Shown here: piece by piece, positions 3,207-30,600 of the stretch
Layout: every line of letters starts with the position of its first letter
Numbering within the stretch: the stretch's first letter is position 1
Assembly (NCBI GenBank): GCA_964640155.1
Contig: CAZXEQ010000005.1
Coordinates: forward strand, 120,001-152,000
Reading direction: 5' to 3'
Source: an uncultured bacterium
GTDB taxonomy: Bacteria > Auribacterota > JACPWU01
Length of the DNA stretch: 32,000 nucleotides
Position numbers and translations under genes: made by a program
Notes under the pieces: generated by a model
Seen by the model: the letters and a program-made list of their open reading frames with translations, nothing else
Told to the model about the DNA's origin: nothing
Database searches by the model: none

Positions 3207-3247
3207 TTCTGCCCATCCAAAGGGAAGTTCATTAATTTTTTAGCTTT

Positions 3248-3275
3248 TACGAAATACGAATTACGAATGACGAGA
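3248..3275. repeat. short heptamer tandem array
   Basis: TACGAAA TACGAAT TACGAAT GACGAGA, in the convergent spacer between the pseudogene and the 321-aa gene. Confidence 0.5.
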
Positions 3276-3338
3276 CAAGCTTTCACAGGCTTTTGCAGTC
3301 CAGTAGGGATAGTCCTAGTTCAGGGGATACGGTTTTTA

Positions 3339-9718: not shown

Positions 9719-9844
9719 GAAACCTCTCAAAAAGGTTCCAGATGCAAGGCACCCGCAAGCGAATGCGGAGGCGTACGTTTGATGGTACGCCGCACAAATG
9801 AGCGCAGAGGGTAACGCAGCAGATGGACCTTTTTCAGGGGTTTC
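9719..9844. repeat. 126-nt GC-rich palindromic intergenic element, copy A
   Basis: About 86% identical (manual alignment, no indels) to 23601-23726 in the same orientation. Terminal inverted repeats are GAAACCTCTCAAAAAGGTTCCA ... TGGACCTTTTTCAGGGGTTTC and the central hairpin is GGCGTAC-N8-GTACGCC. G+C is about 54% by hand count. Confidence 0.85.
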
Positions 9845-14830: not shown

Positions 14831-15820
14831 CTAAACGGAAAGCTCAACCCCTTCTTCAACCGTAAACCCCATCGACTGAATCATAGATTGGGCTTCTTCT
14901 ACTTGTTGCCCCGGTGTTGTTAAATATCCTTCGATAAAAATAGAATTCGCTGGGTAAATTGCAAATCTTTGCATTTCTTTTAAATTAAATTCACGTCCAC
15001 CCGCAGCTCGAATCTCTTTTGTAGGATTCAAAAACCGAAAAAGACTTAAAACCAAAAGACCTTTTGTCGCATCAACACTTTTAGATTTTTGAAGAGGGGT
15101 TCCATCAATCGGATGAAGAAAATTAATTGGGATAGAATCGATATCCATTTTTTGAGTCGTAAACGCTAAATCTAAAATATCTTCGTCTGTTTCCCCCATT
15201 CCAACAATACCTCCGGAACAAGTCGACATTCCCGCTTCTTTAACCGCCTGAATGGTTTTAATTCTGTCTTCATACGTGTGCGTTTTACAAATTTCAGGAT
15301 AAAACCGCTCGCTGGTATTCAGATTATGATTCACCCATCCTACTCCTGCTTCTTTTAATTGCCTGGCCTTGGGATAATCCATGAGACCCAAAGAACAACA
15401 TATCTCTAAATCAGAGTATTTTTTCTTAACTTCTTTGACAACATCGCACAAATGATCAATGTCTTTCTCACTAGGACCGCGTCCGCTAGTCACCATACAA
15501 AACCTTTTAGAACCCGAAGTGACTGCCTTTTCGGCAGCTTTCAACAACTGACTTTTCGACATCATTCTATATTTTTCAATAGGAGCCTCAGAAATCACCG
15601 ATTGAGAACAATAATTACAATCCTCTGGACACAAACCACTGCGGGTATTTTGAAGCATACAAAGCTTCACTTTACGCCCATGAAAATGCTCTCTCACTAA
15701 AAGAACAGCATCTAAAACTTGGGGTAAATCTTCCGAAGAAGCCTGAAGAATACTTCTAGCCTCTTCTCGATTCAGCCTTTGTCCTTCTAAAACTTTCTTC
15801 GAAAATGCTGTGTAATCCAT
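14831..15820 (-). CDS. bioB: biotin synthase (radical SAM)
   Basis: CPEDCNYCSQ radical-SAM cluster motif, YNHNLNTS-like VNHNLNTS and GGIVGMGE. I place the start at ATG 15820 (MDYTAFSKKV...) because GGAG sits 5 nt upstream. The ORF-track ATG at 15889 has no RBS and adds 23 atypical residues. Confidence 0.88.
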   Translation of the reverse strand: MDYTAFSKKVLEGQRLNREEARSILQASSEDLPQVLDAVLLVREHFHGRKVKLCMLQNTRSGLCPEDCNYCSQSVISEAPIEKYRMMSKSQLLKAAEKAVTSGSKRFCMVTSGRGPSEKDIDHLCDVVKEVKKKYSDLEICCSLGLMDYPKARQLKEAGVGWVNHNLNTSERFYPEICKTHTYEDRIKTIQAVKEAGMSTCSGGIVGMGETDEDILDLAFTTQKMDIDSIPINFLHPIDGTPLQKSKSVDATKGLLVLSLFRFLNPTKEIRAAGGREFNLKEMQRFAIYPANSIFIEGYLTTPGQQVEEAQSMIQSMGFTVEEGVELSV

Positions 15821-15987
15821 ATCAACTCCAATATTTTTATCCCAAGAGTTTAGCGTAAAACCTAAAAAAATGCCTCCGAATTCTTTCATATAACGTACAG
15901 TACTTCATACACGAAAATTCCAAGAAGAAAAATAGGCAAGAGTATAAACATGATGTAGACTATACCTCACAGATGAGAAAATGATCG

Positions 15988-16404
15988 ATGAATACATCCA
16001 ACTTAAAACTAGCGCTTATCCTTCAAACCCATTCTTACGAAAAATGGCATTTAGCAGGTACTTTGGCAGCTACAACCGTAGCCGCGGGTGGAGAAGCCCA
16101 TCTTTTCCTTGCTCAAGAAGCCTTGCTAAAATACCTCGATAGCAGCATGGATGAAGCCTCCCCTTCGTTTCAATCTCAAGATCTTAATGAAAAATATATT
16201 CATTTTCTTGAAGATGGAAAGATTCCTAAACCTGGTAGTCTTTTTAAAAAAGCAAAGGAACTAGGAAATATCAAAATTTATGGCTGTTCAGAATCTGTCA
16301 AACTTTTTCATTTAGAGTCAAAACTGACACAAAAACTGGATGCTATTCTTGGGTATACCACTTTCTTAGATATTGCCAGTGATGCCAAATTAATCGTAAT
16401 TTGA
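15988..16404 (+). CDS. DsrE/DsrF-like (DsrE_2) family protein
   Basis: 138 aa. The pattern KLALILQT...AATTVAAGGEAHLFLAQEAL...IKIYGCSESVKLF...ILGYTTFLDIASDAKLIVI fits the DsrE_2 family, which has a single conserved Cys. Confidence 0.6.
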   Translation: MNTSNLKLALILQTHSYEKWHLAGTLAATTVAAGGEAHLFLAQEALLKYLDSSMDEASPSFQSQDLNEKYIHFLEDGKIPKPGSLFKKAKELGNIKIYGCSESVKLFHLESKLTQKLDAILGYTTFLDIASDAKLIVI

Positions 16405-16410
16405 ACAAAA

Positions 16411-17097
16411 TTATAATTCTCTAAAAAAAGAGCCCACTTGTTGTAAACTTTCCAATACCAAATCTGCTTCGGATAAATATTTTTTAGAAAGTGAAGTTTC
16501 CACAGCAATGCATGTCACACCAGCTGCTTTAGCAGAGCGAATTCCGTAAGGAGCATTTTCAATTACAAGGGCTTCAAGAGGTTCTATCTTCAAACCTTTT
16601 AACGCAGTGAGATAAGGTTCGGGATGAGGTTTACCATGAAGGACTGAGTCTCCTGTCACAATCACTTTAAAAAATCTCAAAAAATCTTCTGTCATCATGG
16701 CTTTTACTTCAGCCAAAAAAGAACCTGTTACAAGGGCTAATAAATAATTTTGATCATAAAGAAATTTGACAATCTCAGAAGCTCCAGGGAAAAATTGAGC
16801 TTTGGGGTATCCTTTAAAAATTTTTTCTTTATGTTTAATTAAATCTTGAATCGTGTCTGGATGTGGATTGTGACCCGCCTTGCTTAAAAGATCGTTTGCG
16901 GTATTTGCACCCTTTTCACCCTCACGAAGATAAATTTCTTCACTGGAAACTTCTAGCCCATAAGCTGAAATGGCTTCTCGCCAGGCTGCATCATGATATT
17001 TCATGGTATCGACTAAAACACCATCCAAATCAAACAAAATGGCTTTTAAAGGAGTTGAAGAGAATTGAGATTTGAGGGAAAATTTTTTAGATTTCAT
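16411..17097 (-). CDS. HAD-IA hydrolase (beta-phosphoglucomutase/phosphatase-like), last gene of the phosphonate operon
   Basis: Motif I ILFDLDGVLVDT, motif II LVTGS, motif III/IV KPHPEPY...IENAPYGIRSAKAAG. It begins 6 nt after the upstream gene. It lacks the DWAGT motif of phosphonatase PhnX. Confidence 0.85.
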   Translation of the reverse strand: MKSKKFSLKSQFSSTPLKAILFDLDGVLVDTMKYHDAAWREAISAYGLEVSSEEIYLREGEKGANTANDLLSKAGHNPHPDTIQDLIKHKEKIFKGYPKAQFFPGASEIVKFLYDQNYLLALVTGSFLAEVKAMMTEDFLRFFKVIVTGDSVLHGKPHPEPYLTALKGLKIEPLEALVIENAPYGIRSAKAAGVTCIAVETSLSKKYLSEADLVLESLQQVGSFFREL

Positions 17098-17103
17098 TAT
17101 TTC

Positions 17104-18090
17104 TCATGCCTCTGGAAGAACAGCCACACGGGTTTTCCAGAAAATGAGCAAACCCCAACCAATCGCAGCCCAAGAAAGCTCGCGAATCCTTCGAATCAAA
17201 CTGACTGAGACCCCCAAAGCAGCACTAAACCCTAAAAGTGTAAAAATAAAAAAACTACCCCCTTCTTGAGTCCCAATATTGGCAGGAACAATAAAAGCCA
17301 AGCCCCGAATCATTTGATGCAAGGCTTCAATAATAAGAGCATCTTGAAAATTAAAAGGAATGTGTAAAAAATATAGAATTAAATAAATTTCTAAAACTCC
17401 CGCCCACCAACCCAAAAAATGGAAGAAAAAAGAAAGCATAAATCGTTTCTTGTCTTTGCCATAAAAATGAGCGATATGTAATTCTAATTCATGAATGCGA
17501 TGCATGATTTTTGAAAAGAAACTTTTCCCGACATTTAAATGCATCAATCCTTTTGCAATTCCTGAAAAAAGTCCTTTGTCCTGAAAAAATAAAAAAAGAA
17601 GAACGAGTATTGTCAATAAAACAAGAACGATAATCAATGCCAGACGCAAATGAAAAGGAATGGGGAAATTGACAAATGCAAAAATAAGGCCTATCACAAT
17701 AAAGAGAATTTCAGACAATGTCATGGTTGTTTTAGCAACGACCAAAGAAGCTAAACTTTCTGGAGTCGAAAGTCCGTCTCGCTTCAAAAGCGATGCCTTC
17801 ACAGGTTCACCTCCCATATAGCCTGTCGGAGTCGTGTTATTAACGGCTTCTCCAGCAACACGAACCCAATAAAGCCTCCAGAAACTAACGGGACAAACAT
17901 TTGTCTTAAATGAAAATTTCCAACCTAAAGTATCCAGGGCATAAACAAGGGCATACACTAGGAAGAGAATTAAAAACTTCCAGTGAAGCATATGAAATTG
18001 CATCGCAATAGTGGACCAACCCACCCGATGAATCAGATAAATAAATATCGCCAGCCCAATGCTAAGTAAAAGAGATTGTTTAATCTTCAT
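17104..18090 (-). CDS. LPG-synthase-TM / UPF0104 'flippase-like' integral membrane protein
   Basis: 328 aa, about 8 TM helices. The N-terminus KQSLLLSIGLAIFIYLIHRVGWSTI...W..L and the internal VRVAGEAVNNTTPTGYMGGEPVKA are typical of the TIGR00374/MprF-flippase-domain family. Confidence 0.7.
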   Translation of the reverse strand: MKIKQSLLLSIGLAIFIYLIHRVGWSTIAMQFHMLHWKFLILFLVYALVYALDTLGWKFSFKTNVCPVSFWRLYWVRVAGEAVNNTTPTGYMGGEPVKASLLKRDGLSTPESLASLVVAKTTMTLSEILFIVIGLIFAFVNFPIPFHLRLALIIVLVLLTILVLLFLFFQDKGLFSGIAKGLMHLNVGKSFFSKIMHRIHELELHIAHFYGKDKKRFMLSFFFHFLGWWAGVLEIYLILYFLHIPFNFQDALIIEALHQMIRGLAFIVPANIGTQEGGSFFIFTLLGFSAALGVSVSLIRRIRELSWAAIGWGLLIFWKTRVAVLPEA

Positions 18091-18112
18091 CTATTCCTAT
18101 TCAGCTTACCGG

Positions 18113-19486
18113 TTATCCTACTGGAGCTTCTTCCATTTTCAGAATAAGAACCAATATCCAAAAAATATGTACGCCTACGGCTGCAAGATAAACGAAAGGT
18201 TTAAAACCGCCGACAAGAGCAATGAATAAAACCATCAAAGAAAAATCGCCAGCCTTGAAAGTGTCCCAAAATCGAATTACTTTCTCCACTTGAGGATAAG
18301 GAATATAAACATAGTCCTCTTTTCCCTTTTCCTTGAGAACTCTTTTAAACATAAAAATCACAAATGTGATTACAATGCCACAGCTTGCTCCCCCTCCCCA
18401 ATAGAAAATATTTGGACTCATTCCCTGTTTAAAAAGACCCCAAGCGATCGCAGGAAACAACAGAATATGAAGAAGTCCATCTACACCAATATCCAACCAA
18501 CTTCCCCATTGACTTGATAAACCCTTGGCTCGAGCCACTTCACCGTCACAATTATCCAGAACATATACTACTTGGAAAAGAAGGGCCCCAACTACACTTA
18601 GAGTATACGATCCTTGTATAAAACAAGACAGCGCCATAAGGCCTGAAAACAAACTCATGAAAGTAATTTGATTAGGGGTTAATGAAGTTTTTAAAAAAAT
18701 CTTTGTTAAAAACCCTGATAGTCTTCGATTGATTGGGATCATTCGTCTAGAATTTTCCAAGCGATCTATTTTAGGCAAAATGATCTTAAGCGCTTTCTTA
18801 AGATCTTCTTCAAAATCTATCTCTGTCCAAGGTAAATCTCCCACTGTTTCATACCCTGCTTTCTCCTCTTTCAACCATTCATCAAAAAGTTCTTCATATT
18901 CACAGGTTACACGACCTTGATTGTAAAACTCATCTAATTTTTTCTTCAAAGAAGGAAGGCTCTCTTTTGATACTTTCAAAAAACCTACCCCTTCACCCAC
19001 CTTTTCATAAGAGCCCTCTAGTTTTCTTGCAATAGTCAAAACTTGATCTCCACGAACTCCTAATTTCATTTCTTCTCCGCTATCAATGAAGCGATCATCG
19101 AGAAGGAAACAATTCCTATCCTTCGATTGGACCATACGCTCCAACGCCTGAACGGGGAAAAGAACATCTGCATCCATAATCAAAAAATCATCGGACTCTA
19201 AAATATCTCGAGCCACCCACAGCGAAAGAACGCTTCCTTCTCTATAGCGATCATTGAGAAGATAATGGATATTAAGACCTTCAAATGCTGATCCTAATTT
19301 ATTTTGAATTTTTTCTTTAAGATGTCCCACAACAAAATACACATCTTGAACTCCTACTTTTTTAAGGTTCTGAAGCATTCTTTCAGCTAAAGTTATACCC
19401 CCTATTTCTATCATGCATTTAGGAACATAATCGGTATAGGGAGATAATCTTTTACCAATACCTGCAGTAAAAATGAGAGCTTTCAT
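18113..19486 (-). CDS. bifunctional nucleotidyltransferase / CDP-alcohol phosphotransferase (IPCT-DIPPS-like architecture)
   Basis: The N-terminal domain is an NTP-transferase (MKALIFTAGIGKRLSPYTDYVPKCMIEIGG). The C-terminal part, about 210 aa, has about 6 TM helices. It carries the exact motif DGEVAR-x8-G-x3-D-x3-D (nt 18479-18547). Confidence 0.8.
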   Translation of the reverse strand: MKALIFTAGIGKRLSPYTDYVPKCMIEIGGITLAERMLQNLKKVGVQDVYFVVGHLKEKIQNKLGSAFEGLNIHYLLNDRYREGSVLSLWVARDILESDDFLIMDADVLFPVQALERMVQSKDRNCFLLDDRFIDSGEEMKLGVRGDQVLTIARKLEGSYEKVGEGVGFLKVSKESLPSLKKKLDEFYNQGRVTCEYEELFDEWLKEEKAGYETVGDLPWTEIDFEEDLKKALKIILPKIDRLENSRRMIPINRRLSGFLTKIFLKTSLTPNQITFMSLFSGLMALSCFIQGSYTLSVVGALLFQVVYVLDNCDGEVARAKGLSSQWGSWLDIGVDGLLHILLFPAIAWGLFKQGMSPNIFYWGGGASCGIVITFVIFMFKRVLKEKGKEDYVYIPYPQVEKVIRFWDTFKAGDFSLMVLFIALVGGFKPFVYLAAVGVHIFWILVLILKMEEAPVG

Positions 19487-19531
19487 ATAAAACTGTCCTA
19501 CCTTATACGTCGCGCGTAAAAAATAAAATAT

Positions 19532-20614
19532 TTATACCTTCAGTAATTTCCCTAAACACTTCAAAAATCTATGTATATCTGTCATTCGTAAATCACCCAT
19601 ATTCGCTACACGAAAAATCTGATTTTGCAAGGAGCCTTGTCCTGCATAAATTACAAAACCTTCTTTTTTAAGCTCATCATGCAAGAAAGAATAAGTGATA
19701 CCTTGTGGTAATTTCAAAGCCGTCAACGTGTTAGAGTGATATTTTGAACCAATAAAATATTCTAATCCTAATTTTTTAAATCCTTCTCGAAAATTTTCGG
19801 AATAGCTCTTGTAACGACTGATGCGCTCCTTCACTGTCTCTTTCAAAAGTTCTTCCACAGCCATATCCAAAGCATAAAAAGTCTGAATCGCCGGAGTAAA
19901 GGGAACACCTCCATTTTCCTGTTCTTTCCAATACGCATTCAAGTCTAAATAAAGAGACCGTCGAGGAAAGGCTTTTATCCTTTCGAGTTCGTCTTTTTTA
20001 ATAAGCACAAAAGAAACCCCCGGCAGACCCTGTATACATTTATTGGCTGTTCCTGCACATAAAGAAACTTTCACATTTTTAAAATCAAAAATTTCTCCTC
20101 CAAGTCCACTGATAGAATCTAAAATCAAACGGTGACCTTCCATCCCTTTTAGCTTTGCTATTTTGTGAATGGGATTAAGCATCCCAGTTGAAGTTTCATG
20201 GTGCACCATAGCGACTGTATCAATACTTGAGTCTGCCAATAAAACATCATTTATCTTCTCAAGAGGAAGAGCAGTCCCCAGGGGGACTCTTAGTACTTCT
20301 TTGGGGAAACCATAAAAAGAAACAATAGAATCCATGCGATCTCCATAAACCCCATTGGATAAAACCAAAACTTTTTTCTGAGGATTGAGTCCTGAAACTA
20401 AAGTCGCTTCTAAAGCAACCGTTCCCGACCCAGTCAGAAAAATAGCCGTATAATCCTTTTCAATTCCAAAAGCTTTTAATAAATTTTTTCGGACCTTAAT
20501 AAGAAGATCTGAAAATTCTTTTTCACGATGGCACAAATCTCCCCGTAACAAGGCCTTCTTGACCTTGAGGGAAGTATTAACGGGACCCGGATTTAAGAGA
20601 ACGTATGTAGACAT
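19532..20614 (-). CDS. phnW: class-V aminotransferase, 2-aminoethylphosphonate:pyruvate transaminase type
   Basis: 360 aa. LLNPGPVNTS...LCHREKEF N-terminus, TGSGTVALEA, and a PLP-Lys region AGTANKCIQG. The call is strengthened by context next to PepM/Ppd. Confidence 0.75.
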   Translation of the reverse strand: MSTYVLLNPGPVNTSLKVKKALLRGDLCHREKEFSDLLIKVRKNLLKAFGIEKDYTAIFLTGSGTVALEATLVSGLNPQKKVLVLSNGVYGDRMDSIVSFYGFPKEVLRVPLGTALPLEKINDVLLADSSIDTVAMVHHETSTGMLNPIHKIAKLKGMEGHRLILDSISGLGGEIFDFKNVKVSLCAGTANKCIQGLPGVSFVLIKKDELERIKAFPRRSLYLDLNAYWKEQENGGVPFTPAIQTFYALDMAVEELLKETVKERISRYKSYSENFREGFKKLGLEYFIGSKYHSNTLTALKLPQGITYSFLHDELKKEGFVIYAGQGSLQNQIFRVANMGDLRMTDIHRFLKCLGKLLKV

Positions 20615-20634
20615 ATTTTTTCAAATTCCAATAG

Positions 20635-20737
20635 CCAAATTCCAAACACCAAATAATAACCAAACATACAATTACCAAGAACTCAACATCTTGTTGGTTA
20701 TTAGAAATTGGTGTTTATTTGATTATTGTAATTTGGG
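20635..20737. repeat. long imperfect inverted repeat built of CCAA-phased heptamers (intra-operon hairpin)
   Basis: Left arm CCAAATTCCAAACACCAAATAATAACCAAACA (20635-20666). Right arm TGTTGGTTATTAGAAATTGGTGTTTATTTGATTATTGTAATTTGG (20692-20737). The loop is about 25 nt. The repeat fills the 100-nt ppdB-phnW spacer and runs into the ppdB 3' end. Confidence 0.6.
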
Positions 20738-21305
20738 TTTTGGTATTTGTTTTAACAGCTTTTTTAAATCTTTCTGTCATTTCTTCAGGAGTCCATGTGA
20801 CCCTTTTACAAGATTCACCATCACTGGATTCAACTTTGATTAATAAAAAAGAAGGACCTTCATTTTTCAAAACTTTTTTTAATTTAGCCTCTAATGACTC
20901 ATTCCAGTTCACTTTTTCTACAAAGGCATATCCACAGTCTAAAGCTACTTTTTCTAAGGAAATAAATTTTGAAAGCGTGGGCTGCTCCCCTGTTGAACCA
21001 TAAGCTTCATTATCAAAAACAATATGAATAAAGTTTTTGGGTTTCAGACTTCCCACCATCGCCAATGTTCCCATTCCCATCAAGACACTCCCATCGCCGT
21101 CATAAACAACCACACGTCGCTCCGGGTGAGATAAGGCAACACCCAAAGCAATTGCTGGAGCTAAACTCATAGAACCAATCATATAGAAATTTTCAAGACG
21201 ATCTTGAGCAGAAAAAGATTCTCGACAAATGTGACCATTGGCATGAATCACAAGTTCATCTTTCAAAAGACTAGAAATATATTGAATCGCTTCGATACGT
21301 TTCAT
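20715..21305 (-). CDS. phosphonopyruvate decarboxylase, beta subunit (TPP-binding C-terminal half)
   Basis: ThDP motif GDGSVLMGMGTLAMVGSLKPKNFIHIVFDNEAYGSTG (GDG-x-N). I start it at ATG 21305 (MKRIEAIQY...), 5 nt after the alpha-subunit stop. The longer ORF-track start would overlap the alpha subunit by 82 nt. Confidence 0.8.
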   Translation of the reverse strand: MKRIEAIQYISSLLKDELVIHANGHICRESFSAQDRLENFYMIGSMSLAPAIALGVALSHPERRVVVYDGDGSVLMGMGTLAMVGSLKPKNFIHIVFDNEAYGSTGEQPTLSKFISLEKVALDCGYAFVEKVNWNESLEAKLKKVLKNEGPSFLLIKVESSDGESCKRVTWTPEEMTERFKKAVKTNTKTQITIIK

Positions 21306-21310
21306 AAATT

Positions 21311-21832
21311 TTAATGATTCGCTCCGCCTAAAATTCCTTTTCTCATCAAAAGGGCTGCAGGAATTTTTTTCTCTTCCATTTGTTTCACACAAAAAACCAA
21401 ATCTGTTTCTAAGCTTTCGGCCGTTGGAATGCGATAAGGGATTTTTACTGTATCTAAAAGTTGTGGCGTAATTTCACCCATCACCCAATGTTCAGGAGCA
21501 TCTTTGATCTGATATCCACGAAGGCTGATAATCAGAAGTGTTGGAATTTTGTAAATGAGACTGAGTGAGGTTAATGCATTATAAGAAAGGCCTAGTCCTG
21601 AATTTTGCATCAAGACAACCGGCTTTTTACCTCCTAGCCAAGTACCCACAGCTACGCCCACAGCTGCGTCTTCTCGAATGGCTGGCAAATAGGATTCATG
21701 TGAGCTGATACATTCAATAATATCTTCAAGAAAACTACAGGGAACCCCAGTGAAAAAGTTAAACCCTTGGATTCTAAGTAATTTCCAAAAAGCATGAGCA
21801 AGCTTTGTACACGATGACACCTCGGTCTGCAT
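21311..21832 (-). CDS. phosphonopyruvate decarboxylase, alpha subunit (TPP pyrimidine-binding N-terminal half)
   Basis: 173 aa. FFTGVPCSFL...IREDAAVGVAVGTWLGGKKPVVLMQNSGLG is typical of Ppd/sulfopyruvate decarboxylase ComD-type N-domains. AGGAA RBS precedes ATG 21832. Confidence 0.8.
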   Translation of the reverse strand: MQTEVSSCTKLAHAFWKLLRIQGFNFFTGVPCSFLEDIIECISSHESYLPAIREDAAVGVAVGTWLGGKKPVVLMQNSGLGLSYNALTSLSLIYKIPTLLIISLRGYQIKDAPEHWVMGEITPQLLDTVKIPYRIPTAESLETDLVFCVKQMEEKKIPAALLMRKGILGGANH

Positions 21833-21842
21833 AAGTGTTCCT

Positions 21843-21892
21843 GGTTAACAGTTAACTGTTTACAGTAAACCGTACACTGTTCACCGTAAACC
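21843..21892. repeat. palindrome / word-repeat cluster in the pepM-ppdA spacer
   Basis: Perfect 14-bp palindrome AACAGTTAACTGTT (21847-21860). GGTTAACAGT (21843-52) pairs 9/10 with ACTGTTCACC (21876-85). Direct repeat CAGTAAACC (21863-71) / CCGTAAACC (21884-92). Confidence 0.6.
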
Positions 21893-21896
21893 ATCT

Positions 21897-23567
21897 TTAT
21901 TTTATATGCGCCCAAGCATGTTGATAATCTTCGAATGTATCTATTTCCATCCAGCCTTTATAAGTATCCACTGCTTTGACCGGATGCCCTTGATCAATTA
22001 ATTCCTGAATCATATCCGTCAAAGAGGCCATGGCTAATGTGGAAGATTCATGAAAAGGTTTAGGGTTTAATTGATTTAGACGTTCATATTCGCTACAAAA
22101 AATTTCTGATCCTTTTGGAGAAAGCATCGCAATACCAATAAATTCACCATGTACATGCGTTCGATCTAAATTTTGTCCGATCTTCAAAATAGCGTGATTG
22201 GCCCCTGTAGGTATATAGCGATACGTCGTTTGTGGAGGCTCTTTCATAATCACGAGTTCTTGCTCAAGCCCTTGAGGGATTTGATCCTGACTATGTGCAT
22301 CTCTCCAAGCTTGATCAACTAAAATAGAAACATCCGCAGGAGACTGAAGCAATTTTTCTAAAAGACTCCGATCAAAAAGTACATCTCCATAAAGAAGAAT
22401 TACTCGATCTTTGATTTCCGGTTGAGCACAGAAGAAGGAAGAAAGAATATAACTTTCTTTATAACGAGAGTTCTCATAATAACGTACATTCGGCAACTGA
22501 ACGGCTTCAGCCTTATATCCTCGTACCACAACAATGTCTTTGATATTGCAAGAATTCAAAACTTCGATTTGTCTTTCTAAAATGGTTTTACCTTTAATAT
22601 CCAACATGCTTTTGGGTTTGTCTTCAATCAAAGGAAGTAAATGTTTCTCAAATCCTGCACTGATAATAATCGCTTTGATTTTTTCTCCTCCAACAGGCAA
22701 AAACTGATCTTCGGCTTCTTTCAATTGATCGACACCTACCAATTCATAGACTTCCTCTAACGACACAACTTTGTCTCGAATCGATTTGGCACAACCTCCC
22801 ATTTTGAGATCTTGTAGAGTTTCACGCATTGCTTTGATAGCTGCCCTAATAGGATGATTTGCAAAAATAATAATTTTAAAACCAGCTTTCTCTAATTCTT
22901 CAGCTGGAGTTTCATCGAAGATAGTGGGAACTACCACTAAAGGAATTTTCTGATCCCATCGTCTGGCAAATTCTTTTACTTCATCGGCAGACTTAGATTT
23001 GGAATGAATAAGTACCGCGTCTGCTCCGGCCGCTGCAAATGCGCGTCCCCGTTTAAGGGCTTCTTCCATCCCCCAACCTGCAATCAAAGCCTCTGTGCGT
23101 GCAATCAAAATAAAATCAGGATTTTTTTGAGTAGCTTTTCCAGCCCGAATCCTTCCCTGCATTTCCTCAATAGGAACAAGCTCTCTTTGAAAACCAGGAT
23201 AGAAACTACATCGTTTAGGGAAAATATTATCTTCAATACAAATCCCAGCAATCCCCGCTGCTTCATATTCTGAAACGGTTCTCATTACATTCACCGCGTT
23301 GCCGTAACCATTATCGCAATCTGCAATCACAGGAAGGGAACTGGCTCTATCAATATTCTGAGCAATTTCTAAATTCTCTGTCATCGTCATGTAATTGGCA
23401 TCGGGGAGACATTTTTGAGCTGCGGAAATACCAAATCCCCCAGCCCAAATAGCATCGAAACCTGCTTCTTCAATCAATTTAGCACTCATAGCATCATGAG
23501 CCCCGACTGCAAGAATCGATTTTGAATTATTGAGAAGCGCTTTTAATTTTCGAGATTTTTCGTACAT
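21897..23567 (-). CDS. pepM: phosphoenolpyruvate mutase fused to a nucleotidyltransferase (PntC/LicC-like) domain
   Basis: aa 1 to about 292 are PEP-mutase-like (WAGGFGISA, DCDNGYGN, ARTEALIAGWGMEEALKRGRAFAAAGADAVLIHSK, VVSLEEVYEL). aa about 296-556 are an NTP-transferase (KAIIISAGFEKHLLPLIEDKPKSMLDIKGKTILE). The diagnostic loop reads EDNIFPKRCS instead of EDKxxxxxNS. Confidence 0.8.
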   Translation of the reverse strand: MYEKSRKLKALLNNSKSILAVGAHDAMSAKLIEEAGFDAIWAGGFGISAAQKCLPDANYMTMTENLEIAQNIDRASSLPVIADCDNGYGNAVNVMRTVSEYEAAGIAGICIEDNIFPKRCSFYPGFQRELVPIEEMQGRIRAGKATQKNPDFILIARTEALIAGWGMEEALKRGRAFAAAGADAVLIHSKSKSADEVKEFARRWDQKIPLVVVPTIFDETPAEELEKAGFKIIIFANHPIRAAIKAMRETLQDLKMGGCAKSIRDKVVSLEEVYELVGVDQLKEAEDQFLPVGGEKIKAIIISAGFEKHLLPLIEDKPKSMLDIKGKTILERQIEVLNSCNIKDIVVVRGYKAEAVQLPNVRYYENSRYKESYILSSFFCAQPEIKDRVILLYGDVLFDRSLLEKLLQSPADVSILVDQAWRDAHSQDQIPQGLEQELVIMKEPPQTTYRYIPTGANHAILKIGQNLDRTHVHGEFIGIAMLSPKGSEIFCSEYERLNQLNPKPFHESSTLAMASLTDMIQELIDQGHPVKAVDTYKGWMEIDTFEDYQHAWAHIK

Positions 23568-23600
23568 AAGCTGACAACCTTATTAAAAATAACAGTTCAT

Positions 23601-23726
23601 GAAACCTCTCAAAAAGGTCCCAGATGCAAGGCGCACGCAAGCGACTGAGGAGGCGTACGTTTACTGGTACGCAGCACAAAGAAGCGCAGCGAGCAACACA
23701 GCAGATGGGCCTTTTTCAGAGATTTC
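23601..23726. repeat. 126-nt GC-rich palindromic intergenic element, copy B
   Basis: Same length and orientation as 9719-9844. Termini are GAAACCTCTCAAAAAGGTCCCA ... TGGGCCTTTTTCAGAGATTTC. It lies 33 nt upstream (minus-strand sense) of the pepM start codon. Confidence 0.85.
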
Positions 23727-23730
23727 TTTT

Positions 23731-23777
23731 AATAAAAAGCCCCGGCTCTTCTAACAATAGAAAAGCCAGGGCTTTTA
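23731..23777 (-). terminator. Rho-independent terminator downstream of tpx (potentially bidirectional)
   Basis: The stem AGCCCCGGCT (23738-47) / AGCCAGGGCT (23764-73) pairs 9/10 with a 16-nt loop. On the minus strand it is followed by TTTTTATT and on the plus strand by TTTTAT. Confidence 0.7.
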
Positions 23778-23786
23778 TAAACCGAC

Positions 23787-24305
23787 TTACACCTTTTGCT
23801 TCAGTGTACTCAAGACTTCTTCATAATTTGGTTCATGAGTCACTTCTTTAACAATCTGAATATAAGAGATTTTGTCATTAGCATCGATGATGACAATCGC
23901 TCGGGTCAAAAGACGTAACTCTTTGATCAAAAGACCATAGGCTTGACCAAAAGAAAGATCTCGATGATCGGAAAGAAATTTGATTCGATCAGCTTTTGCT
24001 ACACCACACCAACGGGCTTGAGCAAATGGCAAATCGCAACTAACGGTATAAACTTGAATATTGGAAGGGAAATTAGCTGCTTCCTGATTAAAACGCTTGG
24101 TTTGAATATCGCAAACCGGTGTATCTAATGAAGGAACTACATTTAAAAGACGTGTTTTACCTTTTGAGCTAGCTAAGGTGACCGGTGAAAGATCATTACC
24201 TAACAATTGAAATTCTGGTGCTTTATCTCCCACTTTGAGCTCTGGACCTACAAGCGTCAAGGGGCCTCCTTTAAAAGTCACGGCTGCTTTTCGTTCTTGA
24301 GACAT
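23787..24305 (-). CDS. tpx: thiol peroxidase (atypical 2-Cys peroxiredoxin)
   Basis: VVPSLDTPVCD peroxidatic-Cys motif, a second Cys in ARWCG, and the length (172 aa). A strong GGAGG RBS precedes ATG 24305. Confidence 0.9.
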   Translation of the reverse strand: MSQERKAAVTFKGGPLTLVGPELKVGDKAPEFQLLGNDLSPVTLASSKGKTRLLNVVPSLDTPVCDIQTKRFNQEAANFPSNIQVYTVSCDLPFAQARWCGVAKADRIKFLSDHRDLSFGQAYGLLIKELRLLTRAIVIIDANDKISYIQIVKEVTHEPNYEEVLSTLKQKV

Positions 24306-24422
24306 AAAATCCTCCTGTTAAATTTTTTCATCTTTAAGGCAGGAAAGTTATCATAATAAGCGGCGTCCAATCAAGGAAAATTGAAGAGATGCAGATCCTA
24401 TGCCTTAAATGCGATTTTCCCG

Positions 24423-24451
24423 TGACAAACCTATCGCAAATGTGGTTAAAT
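24423..24451 (+). promoter_or_regulatory. candidate sigma70-type promoter for the bactofilin genes
   Basis: TGACAA (24423-28), a 17-nt spacer, then TTAAAT (24446-51) preceded by TGG (extended -10-like TGn). It lies about 58 nt upstream of ATG 24509. Confidence 0.3.
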
Positions 24452-24508
24452 TCGAAAAGTACTTACAAGCTTATCTATTATGAACATCAAAGAAGGAGTT
24501 CGCGCTTT

Positions 24509-24907
24509 ATGAATCCAGCAATCGAAAATAGTTTAAGTTCTGATGTTGAGATCAAAGGAACACTTAAATCCAGCAACGCATTAAAATTTGACGGAAAAAT
24601 CGAAGGACAGGTTATTGCTGAAGGTCGCTTCACCTTAGGGTCTTCTGGAGAAGTTAAAGGAGATATTCAGGCTCAGCATGTGATCGTTCAAGGAAAAGTT
24701 ACTGGCAACATCTCTGCCTCAGACAAAGTTGAGCTTAAAAGTAATGCACAACTTCAAGGCGACATTAAAGCTGCCCGTTTGGTGATTGAGGAAGGCGTTT
24801 CATTCTCGGGTCGTTCTGAAATCAATCCCGATGGAAAGAAAATGAGCGACGTCGTTTCTAAGCTTGGGAAAAATGCATCTCATAGCGAGCTTGTAGAAAA
24901 GAGATAA
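24509..24907 (+). CDS. bactofilin (polymer-forming cytoskeletal protein, DUF583)
   Basis: The beta-helical repeat pattern EIKGTLKSSNALKFDGKIEGQVIAEGRFTLGSSGEVKGDIQAQHVIVQGKVTGNISASDKVELKSNAQLQGDIKAARLVIEEGVSFSG is classic bactofilin. The ATG at 24509 has GGAG 10 nt upstream. The ORF-track start at 24389 would read through the likely promoter. Confidence 0.85.
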   Translation: MNPAIENSLSSDVEIKGTLKSSNALKFDGKIEGQVIAEGRFTLGSSGEVKGDIQAQHVIVQGKVTGNISASDKVELKSNAQLQGDIKAARLVIEEGVSFSGRSEINPDGKKMSDVVSKLGKNASHSELVEKR

Positions 24908-25047: not shown

Positions 25048-26271
25048 ATGAAAACAGCCCCTGAATCAAAACCCCGCTCAAAAAAAGTGATCGGGAAAAC
25101 GGTTCCTCTGATTTGCCCTGGATGTCAGCATGAACAACAAACACGCCCAGACAGTATCTCTGCCTATTGCGAGAAATGTCGCAACCCCATAGATATTCAA
25201 CAAGCGCTACATCCTAAAGTTAAAGCAACCAAAACAGCGGAAAAAAAAGTTTCTCTCACTTGTCCGTCTTGTGAACATGTTCAGGATGTACGTCCCGATG
25301 GGGTATCTATTTTTTGTAAGAAATGTCATAATTCGATTGATATTCAGGAAACTTTACATCCCAAGGTCAAAGCAAAGAAAGTTCTAAAAAAAACTGTTCT
25401 CTTAATTTGCCCCGGATGTCAACATGAACAACCTGTTCAACCCGATGGCGTATCTATCTTTTGCAAGAGCTGCCATAATTCGATTGATATTCAAGAAGTT
25501 CTGCATCCAAAACCCAAAACACGTAAAACCATTAAAAACACCGTCCCCCTCATTTGCCCTTCTTGCCAGCATGAGCAGCCCGTTCAACCCGATGGCGTTT
25601 CTATTTTTTGTAAAAAATGTCACGAGGCTATTGATATACAAAAGGTTTTACATCCCACTGCGAAAACGGAAGAAAAAGCAGTTGAAGGAAGAATCATCTC
25701 CTGTTTTAAATGTCATGTGGAGTTAACACCTGCTAGTAAAGCCCAATCCGTCTTATGCAAAAAATGTGGCTATCGAAATGATCTTCAAGATTATCATGTT
25801 AAATCCATGCTCAGTCGCGATCTTGAGACACATGGCATTCTAGAAGTAGCGCATGGAGGAACTGTTCTCAATTCTACTGTGAAGGTCAAAGAAGCCATCA
25901 TTGCAGGAAAATTTATTGGCAAACTCATATCTCCTCTGGTGACATTAAAATCAGGAACTCAATTTGAAGGTGGTATCAGAGCTGACCAATTGATTTTAGA
26001 ATCAGATGTGCAATGCCTCATCAAAAAAGAATTCCAAGTCAATCACATCGTTTTGACAGGCCTTTATCGTGGGAACATTCAAACAAGTCATGCTGTCGAA
26101 CTAAAACACGGTGCCTGTTTCATCGGAACATTGTCTGCCCATCAACTTACTGTCGAAGAGGGAGCCACGTTTATGGGAGACGTTAAGATTGAATCTACCC
26201 TCCCTCAAACTCCCGTACAAATCGTGCCAGAATCTTCACAGGTATTGACGACACCCCAGCAAGTGAATTAA
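25048..26271 (+). CDS. five-fold zinc-ribbon repeat protein with C-terminal bactofilin domain
   Basis: Five units of C-x2-C-x14-C-x2-C begin at C23, C72, C121, C170 and C219, an exact 49-aa period. A bactofilin-like beta-helix region follows at aa about 262-385 (GILEVAHGGTVLNSTVKVKEAIIAGKFIGKL...LTVEEGATFMGDVKIE). The tail is Pro/Gln-rich. No obvious RBS precedes ATG 25048. Confidence 0.8.
   Translation: MKTAPESKPRSKKVIGKTVPLICPGCQHEQQTRPDSISAYCEKCRNPIDIQQALHPKVKATKTAEKKVSLTCPSCEHVQDVRPDGVSIFCKKCHNSIDIQETLHPKVKAKKVLKKTVLLICPGCQHEQPVQPDGVSIFCKSCHNSIDIQEVLHPKPKTRKTIKNTVPLICPSCQHEQPVQPDGVSIFCKKCHEAIDIQKVLHPTAKTEEKAVEGRIISCFKCHVELTPASKAQSVLCKKCGYRNDLQDYHVKSMLSRDLETHGILEVAHGGTVLNSTVKVKEAIIAGKFIGKLISPLVTLKSGTQFEGGIRADQLILESDVQCLIKKEFQVNHIVLTGLYRGNIQTSHAVELKHGACFIGTLSAHQLTVEEGATFMGDVKIESTLPQTPVQIVPESSQVLTTPQQVN
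25081..25803 (+). repeat. intragenic tandem repeat, 5 x 147 nt (zinc-ribbon modules)
   Basis: The period is exactly 147 nt, measured from the Cys codons. Units 2-4 are most similar (PDGVSIFCK(K/S)CHNSIDIQE.LHPK). Unit 5 is degenerate. Copies differ mostly at synonymous or conservative positions. Confidence 0.85.
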
Positions 26272-27618: not shown

Positions 27619-30600
27619 TCATGCTGCAGTTTCAACTTCTGTATCTCTTACAACTTCTATTCTTCGGGCTCTCAAACTTTCCACCCTAAGAATTTCTTCT
27701 CTAACTCTTCTTAAAATTTCTTCTATTGAATCTGTCGCCTCTGGAAAACCTTGTCGTATACTTCTAATTTTCCCATCTAAAGCTTCTTCATCAACTTCAT
27801 TAAATCGTTCTAGCAAACGAAGTGCTAATTGATGTATTAATTCTTTTAAAAATTCTTCTCTCTCTTCACTAACCATTGCATCTGCTTGCTTAGCACCTTC
27901 TGCTATCGCCCCTGCAAAGTCAAAAGATCCTCCTATATGTTCAAAAGGCTTTAATAACTGTCTGATTCTCCATTTAACAGAATTTTCCTTTGGTTTCTTA
28001 GCAACAATCAAATAAACATCGTCTATCAATTTATCTTGCTTGTAAAAACTCCACCATTGACTTTTTGGATAATCTTCTGGAATTCTCTCTCCTACAAACA
28101 TTTTAATTTCATACCCCTGCATTTCTAACCATGTCAAAGCCTGTAAAGGGCTTTTAATAATATCTATTTGAGCAATTAACAAGTTTCCCCCAGGTTTAAG
28201 TAAACGATCGTACTCTGTCAAAATTTTAGAATAGTCTTCTGGTTCCTCATCTTCATCTCTTCTCAAATCAATAAAGGATTCATTTATTAAATCTAGCGTT
28301 CCCTCTCGGGGGTAACGAGGATCTGATTGATTTTGAATAACTGTCAAATCTTCCCAATATCTCTGAGGAGGATCTTCAAAATAAACCATTGGACCGCTTA
28401 ACTCTGTTCCCATGACTACAGCATCTTCAGCAAGCCAAACAGGTCGAGTTGCCGGATCTAACAGACGTCGCATCCAAATTCCTTTACCTGTTGCAACATC
28501 CAAAACCGAGTGAATCGCTCCAACGCCTAATATTTCAGATAATTTTTGGCGAGGAAGCAAAGCAACTTGAGTAGCTACTCTTTCTATTTCTGTCTGAGCA
28601 TCAACTCGAGCTGATGCTAAAACAGGATACTTTCTCTCCATTTCTTTTCCACTGATCCATCGCATCAATCGACGCATGGCACCACGAAGATAATCATAAT
28701 TGTCTAACTCAAGAAAATGACTATCCCAAACTCGATGAATGGCAATTTCATAAGCTGCTCTCTCATCTATTTGGTTTAAATACGTTAAACTCAACATTAA
28801 ATATTGATGAAAAATATAATCCGCTAATTCTTCGATTGCCTGTATTTGATCAAAGCCACTGTATTGCTTTACAAGATGCTCATAAACCTCCTGCGCAATA
28901 TAAACAGTAGGTCTTTTACCATCTGATCCCAAATCATAATAGCCACCCAAAACCAAACCTGGAATCACAACCACTCGAACATTCTCAAATCCTAAATGCT
29001 GAGGAGCTACTCCAAACCGTTCTCTAAACTCTTTTTGAAATTCGGCATCTCTTTTTTGAAATGGATAATCTCCCAATAAAATCTTTTTAGCTCCCATAAC
29101 AAATTCTTCTAATGTTATATCTTTCGCTGTTCCATCCCTAAAGGTAGCTCCAATTACAGAATCCATTTCCAAACTTTTAACTTCTTCGCCTGTGTAAGAT
29201 ATAAAGGTTAGACTTTTACTATTGTGAACCACATCTAAACCACCTGTCGTCTCAGATTCTATTTCAGTACTCAATTTTAACTGAGCTAGTTTTGTCAATA
29301 TCGTGTACCCTTCCGGACTTTCAGTGAAGGCCTGTTCCTGAGGATCTAAAAACTCATAAGGACCAATGACACTTACCCTTTCCATCTGATCTGGTGTTAA
29401 TCTAAAAACAGGATCTTGGAATGTAGCTACTAATAATCGTGCTGTAAGAATCAAATCATCATGTTCTAATTTTCTAAATTCCTCCGGTGTAAGAGGATGA
29501 TCAATACCTCTTCTTCTACGAATAGCTACACTATCTTTTACCCCAGGCACCATCATGACACCTGTTGGAATCCCTGATATAAAATGAATACGGATTCGTT
29601 CAAAACCACTTCTTTCTAATTCAGAGATAATTCCAGCTGTTTTCTCAATCATACGATGACTAATAGAAACAGTCTGATCTCTTATATTTCTAGCAATTGC
29701 TGGAGCATGAACCCATTGCACGGAGTGATCCATTAAAAAAGTCATCGCTATTGCAACTTCGCTATATTCTGGAGCTAAAGGAGTATTCATAGCTACACTA
29801 TGTTGAACAGCATTCACCGCATAGTTTGCTAAATCAGTCTGTATAACAGAAGACAGTGTCATAGCCGCATCAGACCATGACAATGTTTCTAATTTAACAT
29901 CTTTTACTTGTTGATCTTCAGGCAGTTCAGAAGTGATAAGTAGATTGTCGGCTGCGTGAGCTGGTGCGTATACTCGAAATTGAGCATTATCTAAACGTGC
30001 TTTTACAAAATCTAATCTATCTCGATCATCCATGGCCACACTATTGCCTAAAATAAAAGACATCATCCCCAAATCTTGTCCATGTCCAAAAATTAGTAAT
30101 TTCTGTCCCTGATGCCGAGCTTCAAGTTGCTCATAAACATGTTCTGATCGTCTTAAGGCTTCAATTCCAGATTCAGAAACACCAGGAGCCTCCACTCCAA
30201 AGTCTTCACCAGAATTAAAACGCTCATATAACTCTGGATTTGTCTGACCGCATTCTTCTTTAGTCTTACCACTCCAGTCTCCCCATGCCATTTCTTTTAA
30301 ATTCGGTTCTATGTGAATGGGAAGTTCTACGCCTACCCTTTCTCTGACCAAATCCTGAAAAACTTGTGCTGTTGCATACGCACAATTTAAAGGACTGGAG
30401 TAAATAATAGGCAAGCGGCCCGCACGAATATCTTTTTCATATTTGAAGTATAAATTCTCTGCAATTTGTTTGGCCTGCTGTTGACCTACATCATTTAGAG
30501 AAATATCCACTCCCCCTGGATAACGATTCTCTATATTCCAATCTGTCTGACCATGAGGAATCAAAGTATAACTATTATTGGCCTTAAATCCAAAATTAGC

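Follow-up and report, generated by a model that had tools for sequence, protein, structure and literature searches.

An uncultured bacterium of the Auribacterota carries a seven-gene operon that probably makes 2-aminoethylphosphonate (AEP), activates it to cytidine monophosphate-AEP (CMP-AEP) and transfers the AEP head group to some membrane lipid. The operon lies on the minus strand of a stretch of 32,000 nucleotides (contig CAZXEQ010000005.1 of assembly GCA_964640155.1, positions 120,001 to 152,000), hereafter the window. Its genes, numbered 1 to 7, encode a phosphoenolpyruvate (PEP) mutase-like domain fused to a nucleotidyltransferase (gene 1), the two halves of a predicted phosphonopyruvate decarboxylase (Ppd; genes 2 and 3), a predicted AEP aminotransferase (AEPT; gene 4), a nucleotidyltransferase fused to a membrane CDP-alcohol phosphotransferase (CDP-OH transferase; gene 5), an HpnL-like membrane protein (gene 6) and a HAD hydrolase (gene 7). 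The fuller statement, an AEP-lipid operon whose acceptor is a hopanoid of the bacteriohopanepolyol type, is based on sequence comparison and is put forward tentatively, at slightly under an even chance. Two testable leads emerge: a PEP mutase (PepM) clade that lacks the canonical signature, and a connection of phosphonates with hopanoids.

The hopanoid link comes from the genomic neighbourhoods of related genes, which were surveyed by looking up the contigs that encode homologues, by an alignment-based scan of metagenomes (80 loci) and by tblastn with reference proteins; a scan of species genomes with a single protein query reached only three loci. A module of six functions recurs in Nitrospira moscoviensis, in Chlamydiae bins, in Burkholderiales and in dozens of metagenome loci, and a survey of genomes for the same gene set in synteny had been proposed in an earlier reading of the window from its letters alone (the sequence-only reading). 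Locus L094 has in common with the window a 407-residue open reading frame (ORF), a bactofilin gene and tpx (60-78% identity) as well as genes 1-6 (44-71%). After the module it continues on the same strand with genes for HpnA (460 bits), a squalene-hopene cyclase (SHC; TIGR01507, 738 bits) and an HpnG-like protein, and hpnE, hpnD and hpnC are adjacent on the other strand. In four further loci (L080, L034, L035 and L067) HpnH, PpdA, PpdB, AEPT, the nucleotidyltransferase, the CDP-OH transferase, HpnL, HpnA, IspH and an HpnG-like protein are encoded in a single colinear block with overlapping stop and start codons (HpnH 398 bits, HpnA 378 bits). The module genes of L011 are interleaved with those for SHC, HpnH and HpnG, while in L002, a Chlamydiae bin, HpnA directly follows HpnL; two more short chlamydial contigs apparently carry both the transferase and HpnA. 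Cultured organisms show the association as well. In Roseomonas marmotae the module sits between a putative hpnN, annotated as an MMPL-family transporter, and ispH-hpnH-hpnG-shc-hpnEDC, and in Mycetohabitans rhizoxinica it abuts hpnD-shc-hpnA-hpnH-ispH-MMPL-dxs.

Relatives of the operon are in several of these cases found inside hpn operons. Genes for the tailoring of hopanoid side chains in hpn clusters include hpnH, hpnG, hpnA, hpnI/J/K and hpnO. To our knowledge, no hopanoid-tailoring enzyme is a CDP-alcohol phosphotransferase. The HpnL-like gene itself lies in or beside the hopanoid cluster in L094, L002, L011, L080, L092 and L097. Among module-bearing metagenome loci of at least 10 kb, 11 of 29 contain hpn genes, compared with none of six control loci that carry the nucleotidyltransferase only, and in a neighbour-joining tree of the CDP-OH domain, which has no support values, the clade of the window and the hpn-embedded clade are sisters. 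The organism in question may possess hopanoid genes of its own: a metagenome contig of the sample that also yielded the window's contig (L093, Logan SRR8893623_493518) encodes a genuine HpnA at 2965-3957 (446 bits) beside a GH57 gene, with a G+C content of 37.7% against 38.3% in the window and 41-44% in related bins, and the same HpnA protein is also encoded on a 621-kb NCBI contig. L093 possibly derives from the window's organism, in which case hopanoid genes would be located elsewhere in its genome. In addition, a Chlamydiae bin (L095; GCA_016178055.1, JACOUC010000047.1, 10001-17418) contains hpnA, shc and hpnG together with hpnE, hpnD and hpnC, so that some environmental Chlamydiae-like bacteria have genes for hopanoid biosynthesis. 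A subgroup of loci (L049, L068, L070, L084, L087 and L091) combines the variant PepM-nucleotidyltransferase fusion described below with PpdA/B, a nucleotidyltransferase and HpnH, in most cases also with the CDP-OH transferase and HpnL and in some with SHC, HpnN or a 2-oxoglutarate (2OG) oxygenase; none has a detectable AEP aminotransferase, and the phosphonate head group of this subgroup may be a different one.

The pathway proposed here is predictive with respect to enzyme activities, donor, acceptor, topology and flipping. The mutase domain of gene 1 would convert PEP to phosphonopyruvate, and the split thiamine pyrophosphate (TPP)-dependent decarboxylase of genes 2 and 3 would form phosphonoacetaldehyde, thereby pulling the unfavourable mutase step. 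Transamination by gene 4 would then give AEP, which a PntC-type cytidylyltransferase, most likely the N-terminal domain of gene 5, would activate to CMP-AEP. At the cytoplasmic face, the CDP-alcohol phosphotransferase domain of gene 5 would use CMP-AEP to attach the aminoethylphosphonyl group to a membrane-lipid hydroxyl, releasing CMP, and the HpnL-like gene 6 product would handle or translocate the resulting lipid. Gene 7 would be a lineage-specific accessory; in the simplest case its product would be a pyrophosphatase and draw the CTP-consuming step forward. As acceptor we propose an extended hopanoid, that is a bacteriohopanepolyol such as bacteriohopanetetrol (BHT), which would yield a zwitterionic hopanoid resembling phosphatidylethanolamine. 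Because related modules lie in hpn clusters and gene 6 is HpnL-like, a bacteriohopanepolyol is better supported than diacylglycerol or ceramide. The most specific form of the proposal, in which the CDP-OH enzyme would phosphonylate a side-chain hydroxyl of the bacteriohopanepolyol and so create the first class of phosphorus-containing hopanoids, HpnL would handle them and the whole ED-N-x5-CS clade of gene 1 would consist of PEP mutases, is more tentative again.

A number of observations weigh against a hopanoid acceptor. The 32-kb window contains no shc, hpnH, hpnG or hpnA, nor any hpn gene other than the HpnL-like gene 6, and where relatives have hpnA it has the HAD gene. Nitrospira-type loci and Burkholderia cenocepacia lack hpn genes for 10-22 kb around the module, and the assignment of L093 to the window's organism is founded on sample identity and G+C content only. 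Co-localisation, even within one operon, is no proof of covalent attachment, and hpn islands also hold transport and envelope genes. The acceptor of CDP-alcohol phosphotransferases cannot be read from their sequence, and the nearest characterised relatives of gene 5 use soluble inositol phosphate. Both trees on which the comparison draws, of the CDP-OH domain and of PepM, are neighbour-joining trees without support values. Finally, the literature searched contains no phosphorus-containing hopanoid and no link between hopanoids and phosphonates save one line in which a 'terpene-phosphonate' is suggested in passing for Acetobacteraceae (PMC8776678).

Many module-bearing loci, the window included, have no adjacent hopanoid genes, and this speaks for an alternative in which the acceptor is a common membrane lipid. 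In such a Kennedy-like step CMP-AEP would replace CDP-ethanolamine, diacylglycerol or ceramide would accept the head group, and a glycero- or sphingophosphonolipid would be flipped by gene 6. The gene set has indeed been labelled a phosphonolipid cluster before, with a diacylglycerol-type pathway proposed for it (PMC5987646 Fig. 7; PMC8942020), and phosphonosphingolipids exist in Bacteriovorax (PMC8942020). A module of nucleotidyltransferase, CDP-OH transferase and HAD protein has also been proposed, without confirmation so far, for inositol glycerolipids and sphingolipids in Bacteroidetes (PMC9246714). That putative inositol-lipid cluster, from Bacteroides vulgatus and Prevotella, resembles the window's operon, also in having an LPG-synthase homologue close by, and a Kennedy-like logic has been suggested for it. 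Its head group is supplied by a myo-inositol-phosphate synthase (MIPS), whereas the window has PepM, Ppd and AEPT. However, genes for diacylglycerol, ceramide or sphingolipid synthesis were not detected beside the module in the annotated loci (the tblastn survey did not query them), while hopanoid genes recur there. The Bacteriovorax cluster falls into another gene-cluster family that is only distantly related, and no such lipid has been found in Burkholderia, abundant as the cluster is (PMC8942020). A diacylglycerol or ceramide acceptor, which the sequence-only reading had favoured, is therefore considered unlikely here; nothing points to it, and comparative genomics points to hopanoids instead.

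The gene set itself is not new, and the candidate phosphonolipid module of the sequence-only reading amounts to a published prediction arrived at again, although the product is still uncharacterised. Li and Horsman (2022, PMC8942020) equated 318 'Burkholderiales_CDP-OH' neighbourhoods with the Group 1 phosphonolipids of Yu et al. 2013, the seven-gene core of which comprises a Ppm-PntC fusion, Ppd, AEPT, a 2OG-Fe(II) oxygenase, a second PntC and two phospholipid-type genes. This CDP-OH family makes up about one third of the catalogued bacterial pepM neighbourhoods, its product is not known and no phosphonolipid has been characterised from Group 1 clusters (PMC8942020); a Nostoc version of the gene set, including hpnL, has been presented with a proposed pathway (PMC5987646). 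Six of the seven core functions are also found in the window. The missing one is the 2OG-Fe(II) oxygenase, which leaves the Group 1 core incomplete and would thus suggest AEP rather than 1-hydroxy-AEP as the head group. An annotated Group 1 example, pBRH01 of Mycetohabitans rhizoxinica, has counterparts of genes 1-6 at 27-41% identity. In contrast to that cluster, the window has EDN..CS in gene 1 (EDKQFPKTNS in Mycetohabitans), its second nucleotidyltransferase and its CDP-OH transferase form one protein, Ppd comes as two subunits and a HAD gene has joined the set; gene 1 also fails the motif by which the Group 1 pepM set was defined.

If the hopanoid reading is correct, a product would be assigned to the most abundant uncharacterised pepM family of bacteria, and mass spectrometry would have a concrete structure to look for; the calculated [M+H]+ is 654.4857 for BHT-AEP (C37H68NO6P) and 670.4806 for its 1-hydroxy variant. 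Organisms that carry the module and can be grown include Roseomonas, Mycetohabitans, Burkholderia and Nitrospira moscoviensis. The link would provide the first functional context for HpnL, and a phosphonate-bearing hopanoid would matter for biomarker geochemistry. Polar phosphonohopanoids could have escaped older work-ups that relied on derivatisation.

The first enzyme of the pathway deserves separate attention. Gene 1 matches the PEP_mutase profile PF13714 (206.6 bits, E 6e-61) and NTP_transf_3 (PF12804), which confirms the domains of the PepM-nucleotidyltransferase fusion that had been recognised in the sequence-only reading; the EDKX5NS signature expected of such a protein failed. [quoted passage not shown] In an alignment that also includes 2DUA, the EDNIFPKRCS segment of gene 1 aligns residue for residue with EDKRFPKVNS of 5UNC and EDKLFPKTNS of 1M1B. 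Gene 1 departs from the motif at two positions, where K116 of the Mytilus enzyme is replaced by N and N122 by C, the latter being the site of the catalytic cysteine of the lyases, and this counts against the proposed pathway. The departure is a property of a clade and not a sequence error, as judged from the homologues: ED-N-x5-CS occurs in 119 of the 120 best homologues of gene 1, those of Nitrospira moscoviensis and Chlamydiae bins among them, in the eight closest 50%-identity representatives (the canonical form turns up only at about 51% identity and lower) and in 22 of 25 PepM genes of related loci. D58, D85, D87, E114, K120, S123, R159 and H190 (Mytilus numbering), which we take to be the catalytic, metal-binding and phosphoryl-binding residues of PepM, are conserved in the window and across the clade. 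In the oxyanion-hole segment of gene 1 (residues 44-49) WAGGFG has Gly in place of S46 of canonical PepM, a change seen only in the sub-lineage of the window and in a few relatives; in L094 the segment is WASGFG.

With a cysteine of lyase type, the EDN..CS clade could perhaps catalyse another reaction of the superfamily, and the product would then not be AEP. A neighbour-joining tree puts the clade basal to the PepM radiation, with the lyases on one side and canonical PepM on the other, and gene 1 stays below the cut-off of the PEP mutase model TIGR02320 (280.5 against 319.55 bits); NCBI names such homologues only 'family protein'. TIGR02320 is nevertheless its best-scoring model, ahead of phosphonopyruvate hydrolase (259 bits) and methylisocitrate lyase (200 bits). 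Against solved structures, gene 1 scores about twice as high on PEP mutases (283 bits, best 5UNC and 1M1B) as on lyases (about 130 bits); a placement with the methylisocitrate lyases had been named in the sequence-only reading as a possible refutation. S123, R159 and H190 are retained, and H190 is missing from the lyase-type outgroup sequences in the alignment. The partners of gene 1 argue in the same direction. The Ppd subunits are encoded directly downstream, Ppd reaches and AEPT nearly reaches its equivalog cut-off, and a nucleotidyltransferase fusion is a hallmark of PepM, about 33% of PepMs being fused to PF12804 (PMC6697681). Canonical PepM (Roseomonas, Mycetohabitans) and variant PepM occupy the same module position with Ppd, AEPT, PntC, the CDP-OH transferase and an HpnL-like protein, in the same hopanoid context. 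Because the two kinds of cluster share partners and context, the variant is judged very likely to be a working PEP mutase, and a different superfamily reaction appears very improbable. The nucleotidyltransferase domain of gene 1 has LicC (1JYK, E 3e-9) as its best solved match and is 28% identical to that of gene 5.

As the clade lacks EDKX5NS, PepM inventories filtered by the motif would miss it. Should the EDN..CS enzymes prove to be genuine PEP mutases, surveys that rely on EDKX5NS count too few phosphonate producers, abundant nitrite oxidisers being among those missed, with consequences for how much phosphonate biology is estimated to produce and for the phosphorus redox cycle.

The intermediate steps fit the profiles. 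Gene 2 contains TPP_enzyme_N and matches positions 1-156 of the Ppd model TIGR03297 (134 bits), and gene 3 contains TPP_enzyme_C (PF02775, 68 bits) and matches positions 171-358 of the same model (180 bits). Concatenated, the two reach 315.3 bits and pass the cut-off of 312.5. Although the two-subunit split resembles ComDE (Ppd is usually a single chain), the models for sulfopyruvate decarboxylase failed, with 115.8 against 147.95 bits for the ComD type and 179 against 221.5 bits for the ComE type, so that the assignment to ComDE envisaged as a possible refutation in the sequence-only reading did not materialise. Gene 4, an Aminotran_5 protein, aligns over its full length with TIGR03301 (PhnW-AepZ) at 355.2 bits, slightly below the cut-off of 360.8, and is 37% identical to the AEPT of Mycetohabitans. 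The route from PEP through phosphonopyruvate, phosphonoacetaldehyde and AEP to CMP-AEP, as first read from the sequence, is consistent with these profiles.

Other products were considered for this set of enzymes and rejected. A sulfonate pathway from sulfopyruvate decarboxylase to taurine is disfavoured by the same decarboxylase scores, and a nucleotidyltransferase cannot activate a sulfonate. An arseno-organic product made by an arsenoenolpyruvate mutase (PMC4943196) would need an AroA-like synthase, and nothing resembling one is encoded in the operon. The chlamydial PepM has been read as part of a fosfomycin-like cluster (PMC9666466), a reading that finds no support here; the neighbours of gene 1 are AEPT, the CDP-OH transferase and HpnL, with no fosfomycin genes.

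Gene 5 combines PF12804 and NTP_transferase (PF00483) with CDP-OH_P_transf (PF01066, 40.5 bits against a threshold of 22). Its CDP-alcohol phosphotransferase motif, which the sequence-only reading had called perfect, is matched exactly, and the residues of D311-x2-DG-x2-AR-x8-G-x3-D-x3-D336 are invariant or nearly so in 18 homologues. An AlphaFold model (predicted local distance difference test score, pLDDT, 86.6) shows an interfacial helix and, after it, membrane helices at 271-291, 294-320, 326-353, 360-387, 401-425 and 428-448. By fold, the model matches IPCT-DIPPS best (4MND, E 1.5e-21) and PntC-AEPT (6PD1/6PD2) next; by sequence, the best solved matches are IPCT-DIPPS over the full length, the PntC-AEPT fusion 6PD1 and AF2299. 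The nucleotidyltransferase domain superimposes on PntC with a root-mean-square deviation of 2.3-2.4 A over about 250 columns. In Treponema denticola (Tde1415, PMC6697681) PntC is fused to AEPT, whereas in gene 5 it is a membrane transferase that is attached to the matched fold. The domain in addition shares 45-50% identity with many stand-alone proteins about 251 residues long and with nucleotidyltransferase-aminotransferase fusions, and such relatives fused to an aminotransferase are consistent with a PntC role. Of the contacts to the amine of AEP in Tde1415, Glu196 is kept as E198 and Glu104 is replaced by Asp105, as in the choline enzyme LicC; AEP specificity of gene 5 is therefore plausible, though not settled. 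In Nitrospira moscoviensis (L004, CP011801, 4258-6457) the nucleotidyltransferase is a separate protein of 239 residues and the CDP-OH protein still has 478 residues with an extra N-terminal region, while other Nitrospira carry a true nucleotidyltransferase-CDP-OH fusion (P0286).

IPCT-DIPPS of Archaeoglobus fulgidus is a bifunctional inositol-1-phosphate cytidylyltransferase and CDP-inositol phosphotransferase that joins a nucleotidyltransferase to a six-helix CDP-alcohol phosphotransferase with the same catalytic motif. By analogy, its architecture implies that the cytoplasmic domain of gene 5 would make a soluble CMP-activated donor that the membrane domain uses at once. The likeness also raises the question whether the acceptor is a bulk membrane lipid at all. 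In IPCT-DIPPS, the best full-length match of gene 5, both donor and acceptor are soluble and the product is dephosphorylated by a separate phosphatase; gene 5 could similarly use a soluble polyol phosphate, with the HAD phosphatase at the end of the operon releasing a soluble AEP-polyol. Alternatively, gene 6 could be an exporter and the acceptor a glycan, lipid A or a polyprenyl-linked intermediate; most known bacterial AEP sits on glycans (PMC6697681). Several features speak against both versions. Identity between gene 5 and IPCT-DIPPS is 22%, the context in the window is phosphonate and not inositol phosphate synthesis, and gene 5 reaches only 125.8 bits on the IPCT-DIPPS model NF041135 against a cut-off of 580; there is no MIPS gene in the window, and the two share the architecture alone, so that gene 5 is not taken to be an IPCT-DIPPS. 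The HAD gene is missing from all other versions of the module and cannot be an obligatory step, and among its relatives with a known activity the closest is a pyrophosphatase. For a glycan acceptor, no glycosyltransferase or LicD-type gene is found in the operon, in agreement with what had been noted before, and the conserved partner is a membrane protein of a lipid-handling type (HpnL / LPG_synthase_TM). An acceptor other than a bulk membrane lipid is accordingly quite improbable, and the transfer step by a membrane CDP-alcohol phosphotransferase with a lipid rather than a glycan as product, as favoured in the sequence-only reading, seems reasonable.

Gene 6 matches LPG_synthase_TM (PF03706, 138 bits, E 6e-40) and has at least six hydrophobic segments. 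On the HpnL model TIGR03476 it scores 192.1 bits against a cut-off of 195.65 (194.1 bits for the L094 orthologue), and on TIGR00374 it passes the cut-off of 43.2 with 78.9 bits. The description as an MprF-flippase-like protein thus stands in respect of the LPG_synthase_TM domain, and the protein is HpnL-like instead of MprF-like. An identity as MprF was rejected, as gene 6 reaches 24.7 bits on NF033480 against 600 and lacks the C-terminal synthase domain, and only the LPG_synthase_TM domain is shared with it. No match was obtained when gene 6 was searched by sequence against solved structures, and its likeness to the MprF flippase therefore derives from Pfam and NCBIfam only. The function of HpnL is not known (10.1101/2025.07.29.667474; PMC12583986).

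Gene 7 matches HAD_2 (E 4e-31) and scores 178.2 bits on NF053653 against a cut-off of 245. Its best solved relative, and the closest of known activity, is BT2127 of Bacteroides thetaiotaomicron (3QU2, E 2e-38, about 39% identity), a HAD-family inorganic pyrophosphatase. In the alignment D11, D13, E47, T113, K147 and N172, presumably the marker positions of BT2127, are conserved, and Tyr76, the cap residue that we assume to restrict its active site, is replaced by Ile. Among 91 loci, the HAD gene occurs only in L001 and L006, which represent the window's own lineage, and it is therefore not a conserved part of the module, contrary to its earlier inclusion as a member phosphatase. The simplest role, suggested by sequence, would be removal of pyrophosphate from the cytidylyltransferase steps. 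In the proposed hopanoid side-chain pathway a phosphatase is postulated after HpnG, and gene 7 may alternatively act as that phosphatase, or on a phosphorylated acceptor or product.

All seven ORFs of the operon (23567-16411) were confirmed, with intergenic gaps of 64, 5, 100, 45, 22 and 6 nt from gene 1 to gene 7; arrangement and gap sizes were recovered exactly as first described, and Pfam and NCBIfam profile searches reproduced the domain calls for all seven proteins. For gene 3, the ORF list extends up to a TTG at 21392, and the start was placed at the ATG at 21305, since the profile alignments begin at residue 1 of its product. The upstream boundary is set by a hairpin that is probably the tpx terminator, with a 19-bp stem followed by a U-run (folding free energy, dG, -31.5 kcal/mol; z = -6.1; none of 200 shuffles equally stable); the region also surfaced as a 26-nt repeat. 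At the other end, the stop codon of a convergent ORF lies 6 nt from gene 7. With the strong tpx terminator on one side and the convergent ORF on the other, the seven genes form their own transcription unit. Consensus scans of 15800-24500 gave chance levels for promoters (24 sites, 21.2 expected) and for terminators (7 sites, 6.9 expected), the latter missing the tpx hairpin, which was found by folding. G+C content is flat across the window, and tRNA and Rfam searches of it yielded no RNA gene. The gene order is the same in L001 (89-98% amino acid identity) and in L094, L002 and L009 (44-78%), and the arrangement is hence not due to chance. L001, the nearest copy, is labelled as a genome bin of Candidatus Auribacterota, a member of the PVC group, and the next nearest copies are in Chlamydiae/Chlamydiota bins that have the upstream bactofilin and tpx genes in common with the window. 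The coordinates of all features are given in Table 1.

Table 1. Positions in the window of the operon genes, of domains and motifs within them, and of the upstream hairpin.
Feature	Positions	Strand	Length or residues	Assignment
Gene 1	21897-23567	-	556 aa	PEP-mutase-like domain and LicC/PntC-type nucleotidyltransferase, fused
Gene 1, PEP-mutase-like domain	22680-23567	-	aa 1-296	
Gene 1, variant signature EDNIFPKRCS	23205-23234	-	aa 112-121	Located where EDKX5NS defines PepM
Gene 1, C-terminal nucleotidyltransferase domain	21897-22679	-	aa 297-556	PF12804, PF00483
Gene 2	21311-21832	-	173 aa	Predicted phosphonopyruvate decarboxylase alpha (TPP N-terminal half)
Gene 3	20715-21305	-	196 aa	Predicted phosphonopyruvate decarboxylase beta (TPP C-terminal half)
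Gene 4	19532-20614	-	360 aa	Predicted 2-aminoethylphosphonate aminotransferase, class V, pyridoxal phosphate (PLP)
Gene 5	18113-19486	-	457 aa	PntC-like cytidylyltransferase and membrane CDP-alcohol phosphotransferase, fused (predicted)
Gene 5, CDP-alcohol phosphotransferase motif DNCDGEVARAKGLSSQWGSWLDIGVD	18479-18556	-	aa 311-336	Exact match
Gene 6	17104-18090	-	328 aa	HpnL-like / LPG_synthase_TM 'flippase-like' membrane protein
Gene 7	16411-17097	-	228 aa	HAD-IA hydrolase, BT2127 pyrophosphatase-like, lineage-specific accessory
tpx hairpin, probable terminator	23729-23776	-		Directly 3' of the tpx stop codon; upstream boundary of the operon

Three other ORFs of the window may be mentioned. 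The 407-residue ORF (25048-26271, plus strand) contains tandem CxxC...CxxC zinc-ribbon repeats of 147 nt (49 residues) at 25294-25622 and adjoins the bactofilin gene (24389-24907); its counterpart in L094 has the same position and 60% identity. Outside the operon and 5 kb downstream of it, a minus-strand gene (9843-11111) encodes a membrane protein of 422 residues that resembles PMT_2 / ArnT only weakly (21.7 bits, short of the cut-off). Finally, 27619-31983 on the minus strand is part of a huge ORF, with 2843 residues in the full contig L006, that shows faint matches to CheR-type and Methyltransf_23 methyltransferases and a histidine-phosphatase domain.

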